A stretch of DNA of 363 nucleotides, from NCBI RefSeq assembly GCF_003334385.1, contig NZ_QOWN01000191.1; one strand, given 5' to 3'. A model generated the notes under the pieces. It searched no databases, was not told where the DNA came from, and worked only from the letters and a program-made list of their open reading frames with translations. This DNA comes from Escherichia coli (GTDB lineage Bacteria > Pseudomonadota > Gammaproteobacteria > Enterobacterales > Enterobacteriaceae). Made by a program: the position numbers and the translations under genes. Positions 1-363 of the stretch are shown here, piece by piece; the first letter of the stretch is position 1; the number at the start of each line of letters is the position of its first letter.

Positions 1-363
1 CTGCCTGATGGTGTGGAGACATACGGGGTGTGGGGACTCTCCCTGCCGTCACTGCGCCGTCGCCTGTTCCGCTGTGTCTCCATCCGGGAAAACACGGACG
101 GCACCTTTGCCATCACGGCAGTGCAGCACGTACCGGAAAAAGAAGCCATCGTGGATAACGGGGCCCGCTTTGAGCCGCAGTCAGGCACCCTGAACAGCGT
201 TATCCCACCGGCAGTGCAGCACCTGACGGTGGAGGTGAGCGCAGCTGACGGCCAGTATCTGGCGCTGGCGAAATGGGACACGCCGCGGGTGGTGAAGGGC
301 GTGCGCTTCAGTCTGCGCCTGACCAGTGGAAGCGGTGAGAACAGCCGCCTGCTGACCACCGCC
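1..363 (+). CDS. J: Internal fragment of a phage tail tip attachment / host-specificity protein (lambda gpJ-like central tail fibre protein); partial at both ends, frame +1
   Basis: Frame +1 has no stop codon across all 121 codons (the only TGA/TAA triplets fall in frames +2 and +3). Third-position GC is about 76% (92/121 by hand count), with CTG the dominant Leu codon, as in enterobacterial-type coding sequence. The translation contains RRLFRCVSIRENTDGTFAITAVQHVPEKEAIVDNGA and PPAVQHL...WDTPRVVKGV, which I recognise from memory as near-matches to the middle of lambda J (UniProt P03749). No start or stop is in the window, so gene boundaries are unknown. Not verified by a search. Confidence 0.85.
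   Translation, partial: MPDGVETYGVWGLSLPSLRRRLFRCVSIRENTDGTFAITAVQHVPEKEAIVDNGARFEPQSGTLNSVIPPAVQHLTVEVSAADGQYLALAKWDTPRVVKGVRFSLRLTSGSGENSRLLTTA
116..129. repeat. Copy 1 of a 14-bp perfect direct repeat (cggcagtgcagcac), intragenic and in frame; encodes (T)AVQH
   Basis: Exact string cggcagtgcagcac at 116-129 and again at 209-222. Flanking bases differ on both sides (a/c upstream, g/c downstream). Confidence 0.9.
205..363 (+). other. Probable N-terminal half of a fibronectin type III-like (Ig-like beta-sandwich) domain within the J-like protein
   Basis: Codons 69-121 read PPAVQHLTVEVSAADGQYLALAKWDTPRVVKGVRFSLRL... This follows the usual FN3 opening pattern: Pro-Pro start, a hydrophobic strand A (HLTVEV), a hydrophobic strand B ending in the conserved Trp (YLALAKW), then Pro (DTP). 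Lambda gpJ is known to carry FN3-like domains in its central region. The domain would continue beyond the window. Confidence 0.5.
209..222. repeat. Copy 2 of the 14-bp perfect direct repeat (cggcagtgcagcac), intragenic and in frame; encodes (P)AVQH
   Basis: Identical 14-mer, 93 bp (31 codons) downstream of copy 1, in the same codon phase (gca gtg cag cac in both). Confidence 0.9.

Follow-up and report, generated by a model that had tools for sequence, protein, structure and literature searches.

Introduction

The tail tip of phage lambda has been resolved by cryo-EM in both a closed and an open state (PMC10721106, PMC11101478). Its tip attachment protein J (gpJ) presents, in order, hub domain IV (HDIV), a linker, two fibronectin type III domains (FNIII-1 and FNIII-2), a helical shaft, a beta-prism and the RBD. 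Within lambda HDIV, an extra beta-sandwich comprising residues 483-569 is inserted before strand beta25 (residues 570-578) (PMC10721106). FNIII-1, which spans approximately residues 616-716 (8IYK, 8K35, 8XCI, 9E7M), is an already known domain: cryo-EM structures of both states include it, the literature has a name for it and Pfam family PF24421 describes it. In the closed state of lambda, three FNIII-1/FNIII-2 pairs pack against one another on the tail axis and constitute the distal seal of the tube; upon LamB binding, the helical bundle adopts a new fold and the FN3 strings come apart, two of the three moving to one side of the fiber and one to the other (PMC11101478).

Similar FN3 behavior has been described for T5 pb3 (PMC10038345) and the F-type pyocin protein PA0641 (10.64898/2026.02.24.707460), both of which share with lambda gpJ the hub domains HD II-IV, a long linker and two FNIII domains at the cone tip, and in both of which the FN3 strings change position once the receptor is bound. 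The three strings of T5 stand apart, without the closed cone found in lambda (PMC10721106). Canonical FN3 domains (PF00041; 10Fn3, titin, neogenin, sDscam FNIII1) share with the gpJ domain a seven-strand A-B-C-C'-E-F-G sandwich, an N-terminal Pro, a Trp in strand B and, in the E-F region, a Tyr and the Leu-x-x-Gly motif, in a kinship that is seen at the profile level; their context differs, with the gpJ domain sitting in a trimeric phage tail tip.

Here we analyze a stretch of DNA of 363 nt, referred to in its full length as the window. Our results indicate with high confidence that the window encodes the end of HDIV, the linker and then strands A to C' of FNIII-1 of a lambda-like gpJ, a domain that, by homology, would mainly be a structural closing and hinge module. 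The domain lies at the same place in the same protein as its lambda counterpart.

The window is an internal fragment of a prophage J gene

Frame +1 is open across all 121 codons of the window (nt 1-363), whereas the remaining two plus-strand frames are interrupted by stops and none of the listed minus-strand open reading frames exceeds 26 aa. The frame +1 translation is LPDGVETYGVWGLSLPSLRRRLFRCVSIRENTDGTFAITAVQHVPEKEAIVDNGARFEPQSGTLNSVIPPAVQHLTVEVSAADGQYLALAKWDTPRVVKGVRFSLRLTSGSGENSRLLTTA (quoted in excerpt as ...NSVIPPAVQHLTVEVSAADGQYLALAKWDTPRVVKGVRFSLRLTSGSGENSRLLTTA). Searches with phmmer against PDB sequences matched window aa 1-120 to residues 549-670 of the chain described as 'Tip attachment protein J' (8IYK, 8IYL, 8K35, 8XCG, 8XCI and 9E7M; E 1e-49), and the window is 70% identical at the protein level to lambda gpJ residues 549-671. 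Positions 549-670 of the NCBIfam profile lambda_TipJ (NF049904) aligned to the fragment with an E-value of 6e-68. The curated cutoff of this profile, 1950 bits, is a whole-protein score beyond the reach of a 121-codon fragment alone; the nearest full-length homolog, the gpJ of Escherichia coli SW070917, scores 2127 bits and is hence a member of the family.

At the nucleotide level, megablast matched the window to 188 phage records as well as to 3,194 of the 5,426 complete genomes of E. coli, and the annotated features among the matches listed were all J, host-specificity, tail-tip or tail-fiber genes. The closest match is the prophage gpJ gene of E. coli SW070917, with 99.4% identical nucleotides and an identical protein across the window, followed by phage PhiR12_2_star (98.6% nucleotide identity). 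The tail-tip operon order M-L-K-I-J was found in these two nearest records, beyond the 363 nt of the window: the tail-tip genes L, K and I precede J in both, and M is visible upstream in PhiR12_2_star.

These searches also bear on the possibility that the motifs that first drew attention to the window resemble an FN3 domain by chance, in non-coding or differently framed sequence. We found no point in support of this reading, and it is refuted by frame +1 being the sole open frame, by the strength of the matches to gpJ (E 1e-49) and to the Pfam family Ig_J (E 2e-19) and by the breadth of matches to E. coli genomes and phage records, whose annotated features were, among those listed, invariably J, host-specificity or tail-fiber genes.

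The two nearest relatives also differ from lambda beyond the region covered by the window. Downstream of J, both PhiR12_2_star and SW070917 harbor a side-tail-fiber-like gene, annotated as 'prophage tail fiber N-terminal domain-containing protein', and then a DUF4376 gene (the region 3' of J corresponds in these records to L001 6070-7774 and L002 6070-8176), whereas lambda carries lom at that place. The nearest full-length homolog is 1176 aa long, compared with 1132 aa for lambda gpJ, and differs from it in the C-terminal receptor-binding region. Since the C-terminal region of J in the nearest relatives (about 180 residues from approximately residue 1000) is unlike the LamB-binding domain of lambda, the receptor of these J proteins is probably other than LamB.

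Hub domain IV and the linker precede the domain onset

To test the fold, relatives were gathered by exhaustive HMMER search (751 matches at E ≤ 1e-3), and 36 sequences with 26-93% identity to the query, which consisted of the window and the downstream residues of the nearest homolog, were aligned. The window itself ends after strand C', and the complete fold was modeled with AlphaFold2 using downstream residues taken from SW070917 gpJ (protein-identical; 99.4% at the DNA level). Because the first residue of the window is equivalent to lambda residue 549, the 5' part of the window could be mapped directly onto the described elements of lambda HDIV. The resulting features, in window coordinates, are the following:

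nt 1-363, plus strand: fragment from the interior of a lambdoid prophage J gene (tip attachment or central tail fiber protein) in frame +1, equivalent to residues 549-669 of the 1176-aa homolog
nt 1-63 (codons 1-21), plus strand: C-terminal end of the extra beta-sandwich in hub domain IV, mapped from lambda residues 483-569 (PMC10721106)
nt 64-129 (codons 22-43), plus strand: last HDIV strands, with LFRCVSIRE (codons 22-30) equivalent to lambda beta25, followed by GTFAITAVQH
nt 130-204 (codons 44-68), plus strand: HDIV-FNIII linker, with PEKEAIVDNG (aa 47-54) as a short helix, then a loop up to approximately codon 68
nt 181-360, plus strand: Pfam PF24421 (Ig_J, 'Tip attachment protein J, Ig-like domain'), first 60 of its 104 model positions, cut by the window end
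nt 205-363, plus strand: N-terminal 53 residues of FNIII-1, from AlphaFold2 strands, Foldseek and the family profile
codons 69-70, plus strand: Pro-Pro start of FNIII-1, with P70 91% conserved
nt 217-246, plus strand: predicted strand A (AlphaFold2)
nt 253-279, plus strand: predicted strand B with core Trp92 (AlphaFold2)
nt 304-327, plus strand: predicted strand C (AlphaFold2)
nt 322-345 (codons 108-115), plus strand: variable C-C' loop TSGSGENS (alignment)
nt 346-363, plus strand: predicted strand C' (AlphaFold2), cut by the window end

Codons 1-68 encode the terminal part of hub domain IV and the HDIV-FNIII linker (PMC10721106). The AlphaFold2 model presents one strand at aa 10-15 and another from aa 18 in the sandwich end, and the last HDIV strands at aa 18-30 and 36-42. 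Codons 22-43 constitute the best-conserved stretch of the window, with a mean identity of 0.56 across homologs and a histidine, H43, conserved in 97% of them, and K47 of the linker is invariant among the aligned homologs. In the linker, the model places a helix at 47-54 and a helix or turn at 64-67; residues 48-57 have a pLDDT below 50, as would fit a flexible linker. The linker loop is one residue shorter than that of lambda (FE-PQ vs FDGEQ).

Sequence kinship of T5 pb3 and the F-type pyocin PA0641 to the window is distant, and the F2-pyocin tail fiber (25vf_A) aligns only to window aa 8-74 (nt 22-222), the alignment ending at the FN3 start (IPPGVQ). The end of this alignment fits the same domain boundary, and the restriction of the aligned region to the HDIV end and the linker indicates that the hub-linker sequence is conserved more deeply than FNIII-1.

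The only repeat found in the window is a 21-nt in-frame direct repeat that spans this region, with copies at nt 116-136 and 209-229 (spacing 93 nt) that are identical at 18 of 21 positions, the first 14 nt being exact. It encodes AVQH twice, in the last HDIV strand (ITAVQHVPE) and at the start of FN3 strand A (PPAVQHLTV). Lambda carries the same AVQH peptide repeat, with two DNA copies that differ more, and in distant homologs the second copy reads PxVE[NH]L and is not conserved outside the lambda-like clade; for these reasons, the repeat is probably incidental. An Rfam scan of both strands of the window returned only a meaningless lncRNA match (14 bits, E 0.71), and a scan of the window for promoters found none. 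A single terminator-like hairpin with a T-run (nt 97-114, minus strand) lies inside the coding region and is not significant (1 vs 0.3 ± 0.6 in shuffled sequences).

An FN3-type beta-sandwich begins inside the window

The initial annotation had proposed, from short motifs alone, that an FN3-like domain starts at nt 205 (codon 69), so that the window would hold the first part of the fold downstream of a conserved segment. The motifs lie where it had placed them: PP at codons 69-70 (nt 205-210), HLTVEV at 74-79 (nt 220-237), YLALAKW at 86-92 (nt 256-276), DTP at 93-95 (nt 277-285) and VKGV at 98-101 (nt 292-303). The sole Pfam match on the fragment, to PF24421 (Ig_J), covers aa 61-120 with an E-value of 2.2e-19. 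Since this match runs from model position 1 to position 60 of 104, the window takes in the onset of the domain but ends, on the 3' side, before the domain is complete. In the full-length homolog, where Ig_J is complete (E 4e-40), Pfam families are arranged as follows:

residues 86-207: FNIII-A_GpJ
residues 331-492: Phage-tail_3
residues 609-712: Ig_J (PF24421)
residues 714-816: Ig_J_second (PF24489)
residues 871-997: Phage_Tail_Tip

The position of the domain is that of gpJ FNIII-1, with the upstream segment aligning to lambda residues 549-616, including beta25, and Ig_J_second following directly. With regard to the precise onset, the check suggested in the initial annotation was for a Pfam boundary close to codon 69. 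Ig_J begins eight codons upstream of that, at codon 61 (nt 181), and the generic fn3 model, which matches the full-length homolog marginally at residues 620-703 (E 0.065) from model position 3, equivalent to window codon 72, implies a start at codon 70. The first predicted strand runs from codon 73, and nt 205 is a good estimate of the FN3 onset. The exact start residue of lambda FNIII-1 is not given in PMC11101478, including its supplements, in the supplementary legends of PMC10721106 or in the Ur-lambda paper, and for this reason the boundary adopted here is taken from Pfam and from the AlphaFold2 model. The proposed domain boundary within the window was likewise borne out, with greater conservation on the upstream side: across 35 homologs, identity to the query averages 0.56-0.60 at aa 22-60, whereas at aa 61-121 it drops to 0.26.

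Structure prediction on the 36-sequence alignment (mean pLDDT 87.3) yielded seven strands in this region, at residues 73-82, 85-93, 102-109, 116-123, 127-133, 136-145 and 155-161, with a second sandwich at residues 169-257. The predicted strands follow the FN3 order A-B-C-C'-E-F-G, but only A (73-82), B (85-93), C (102-109) and most of C' (116-123) lie in the window, with E, F and G beyond its 3' end; the window thus contains four of the seven strands and 60 of the 104 Ig_J positions, in agreement with the claim that it holds only the first part of the fold. Modeling of the isolated domain (residues 66-166) returned the same strand pattern with a pLDDT of 91.6 and a pTM of 0.83. In Foldseek superpositions of this predicted model on solved structures, lambda gpJ (8xci, 8iyk, 8k35, 9e7m) matched with TM scores of 0.86-0.89 at 2.1-2.3 Å over 99-101 columns; by sequence, the FN3 portion of the window is 64% identical to lambda. 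Structure prediction and comparison with the solved lambda tail tip hence place the start of a beta-sandwich here and superpose it on gpJ. Together with the Ig_J match and the profile matches to fibronectin, titin and LIFR described below, they establish that a sandwich of FN3 type begins inside the window.

The domain is related to canonical FN3 domains

After lambda gpJ, the next Foldseek matches of the isolated-domain model were FN3 domains, those of POMGNT2 (TM 0.76-0.78) and sDscam FNIII1 (TM 0.75/0.81), and further FN3 matches included 10Fn3 (1ttf), monobodies, irisin, LAR, EpoR and CD148. Matches to the two-domain model were lambda gpJ (E 7e-30), the T1 tail tip (E 3e-9) and, at E-values of about 1e-8, FN3 pairs arranged in tandem in neogenin, titin, NCAM, fibronectin and LAR.

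Kinship with FN3 is also apparent by sequence. The domain-family profile, searched against PDB sequences, identified titin (E 2e-13), the LIF receptor LIFR (E 2e-7), RPTPσ (E 2e-7) and fibronectin (E 6e-7 to 1.5e-6), as well as gp130, ROS1, IL-3Rα, IFNAR1 and Eph receptors, and the fibronectin alignment paired family-profile positions 6-79 with residues 4-81. Identity between canonical FN3 domains and the gpJ domain is 11-28%, and the generic fn3 model is below threshold on this sequence alone. Among the 36 family members, nine were matched by PF00041 at E ≤ 1e-3, with a best value of 7e-7; on the query the model was marginal both at full length (E 0.065) and with the isolated domain (E 0.0013), and it gave no match in the Pfam scan of the window fragment. 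Because generic fn3 is marginal on the single sequence, the assignment is based here on the family profile together with structure. Among the FN3 core residues, P70 (91%) and the strand-B W92 (89%) are conserved in the window, and further landmarks lie just past it, with G136 conserved in at least 90% of sequences and an E-F consensus of L..G.Y...VRA.N..GQ.G.

We considered whether the segment might belong to another Ig-like or beta-sandwich class, such as PKD, Big, Y_Y_Y or prealbumin-like domains, instead of FN3 proper. Pfam does maintain a separate 'Ig_J' family for the domain, and there are weak overlapping Pfam matches to Y_Y_Y (E 6.6e-7, over the last 40 residues), CarboxypepD_reg, SpaA, Cadherin and PKD. 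These weak matches, however, are to partial models and cover the E-F-G region only, while the whole-domain profile finds the FN3 domains of fibronectin, titin, cytokine receptors and Eph receptors over positions 6-79 or more, and the recognized non-gpJ matches among the top-ranked Foldseek matches are all FN3. The strand order A-B-C-C'-E-F-G, the Trp in strand B and the LxxGxYxxxVxAxN..G signature in E-F are likewise those of FN3, and the lambda structure papers name the domain FNIII-1 (PMC11101478, PMC10721106). Assignment to a different beta-sandwich class is thus highly improbable.

A predicted closing and hinge module of the tail tip

The assignment of the window to gpJ FNIII-1 suggests a role by comparison with lambda. 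FNIII-1 is the first of two tandem FNIII domains, with strands E, F and G and the whole of FNIII-2 encoded 3' of the window, and would act mainly as a structural closing and hinge module atop the central fiber. Before receptor binding, a three-helix bundle below the FN3 pairs would clamp the cone shut; at channel opening, the FN3 pairs would swing sideways on the long HDIV-FNIII linker, allowing the hub domains to rotate and the DNA channel to open. We infer that this sealing and gating mechanism carries over from lambda, whose gpJ shares 64% identity with the FN3 portion of the window.

Ig-like modules on phage tails have also been associated with weak surface or carbohydrate interactions, an association raised in the initial annotation as well, and the domain could in principle be primarily an accessory adhesion module that binds cell-surface carbohydrates weakly and raises adsorption, with no structural or gating role. 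Carbohydrate binding has been put forward as a possibility for the Ig-like domains of gpJ (PMC10721106), the FN3 part is far less conserved than the hub and linker (0.26 vs 0.56-0.60 identity) and the surface loop at aa 108-115 varies by indels, as expected of an exposed, adaptable surface. Low conservation, however, is normal for FN3 scaffolds, the papers cited here report no binding data for gpJ FNIII domains, and in lambda the FNIII-1/FNIII-2 pairs form the distal seal and relocate at channel opening (PMC11101478), as the FN3 strings do in T5 (PMC10038345). A primarily adhesive function is therefore unlikely, and any role of the gpJ FN3 domain in carbohydrate adhesion is speculative; a mainly structural closing and hinge function is the reading that we favor.

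Sequence exchange and the C-C' loop

The initial annotation had further remarked that modules of this kind are frequently shuffled between phages. Taken as a junction at the domain boundary in the window, this claim did not hold among close relatives, for which nucleotide alignments reveal none. In blastn searches, lambda-type J genes align at 74-76% nucleotide identity from nt 4 to nt 324-335, continuously across nt 181-205, and codon-level sliding identity to lambda drops gradually, without an abrupt step. On these grounds, a mosaic junction at nt 181-205 was rejected.

The blastn alignments to more distant J genes, both of lambda type and of an approximately 83%-identity Stx-phage group, end instead at the C-C' loop (nt 324-335). 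This loop differs in sequence from its lambda counterpart, with an indel that leaves it one residue shorter (TSGSGENS- here vs TVTADDGSE in lambda), and it looks like a variable surface loop or, possibly, a local recombination edge.

A different pattern emerged among five J-like fibers of 1100-1400 aa (P0095, P0110, P0129, P0138 and P0146), which are 39-46% identical to the query within query residues 113-258. The shared part starts at window-equivalent residue 113-130 and corresponds to the C-terminal half of FNIII-1 plus FNIII-2, whereas similarity to the same five fibers is not detectable over the hub and linker, including the otherwise best-conserved residues 22-60. This suggests a distal FN3 module that is common to different hub types. 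That the C-terminal half of FNIII-1 and FNIII-2 have been swapped between J-type fibers with unrecognizably different hubs and linkers is a doubtful extension of this pattern and of the loss of nucleotide alignment at the C-C' loop, to which we assign a low probability. If true, it would place a recombination hotspot inside FNIII-1, at or just past the 3' end of the window, and not at the domain boundary proposed initially.

Implications

FNIII-1 being a known domain of gpJ, the result matters little beyond correct annotation. The onset of an FN3 domain is nevertheless recognizable from raw sequence to within a few codons. For J-based host-range chimeras, the conservation of the linker and the HDIV strands and the tolerance of the FNIII-1 C-C' loop to indels may be useful.
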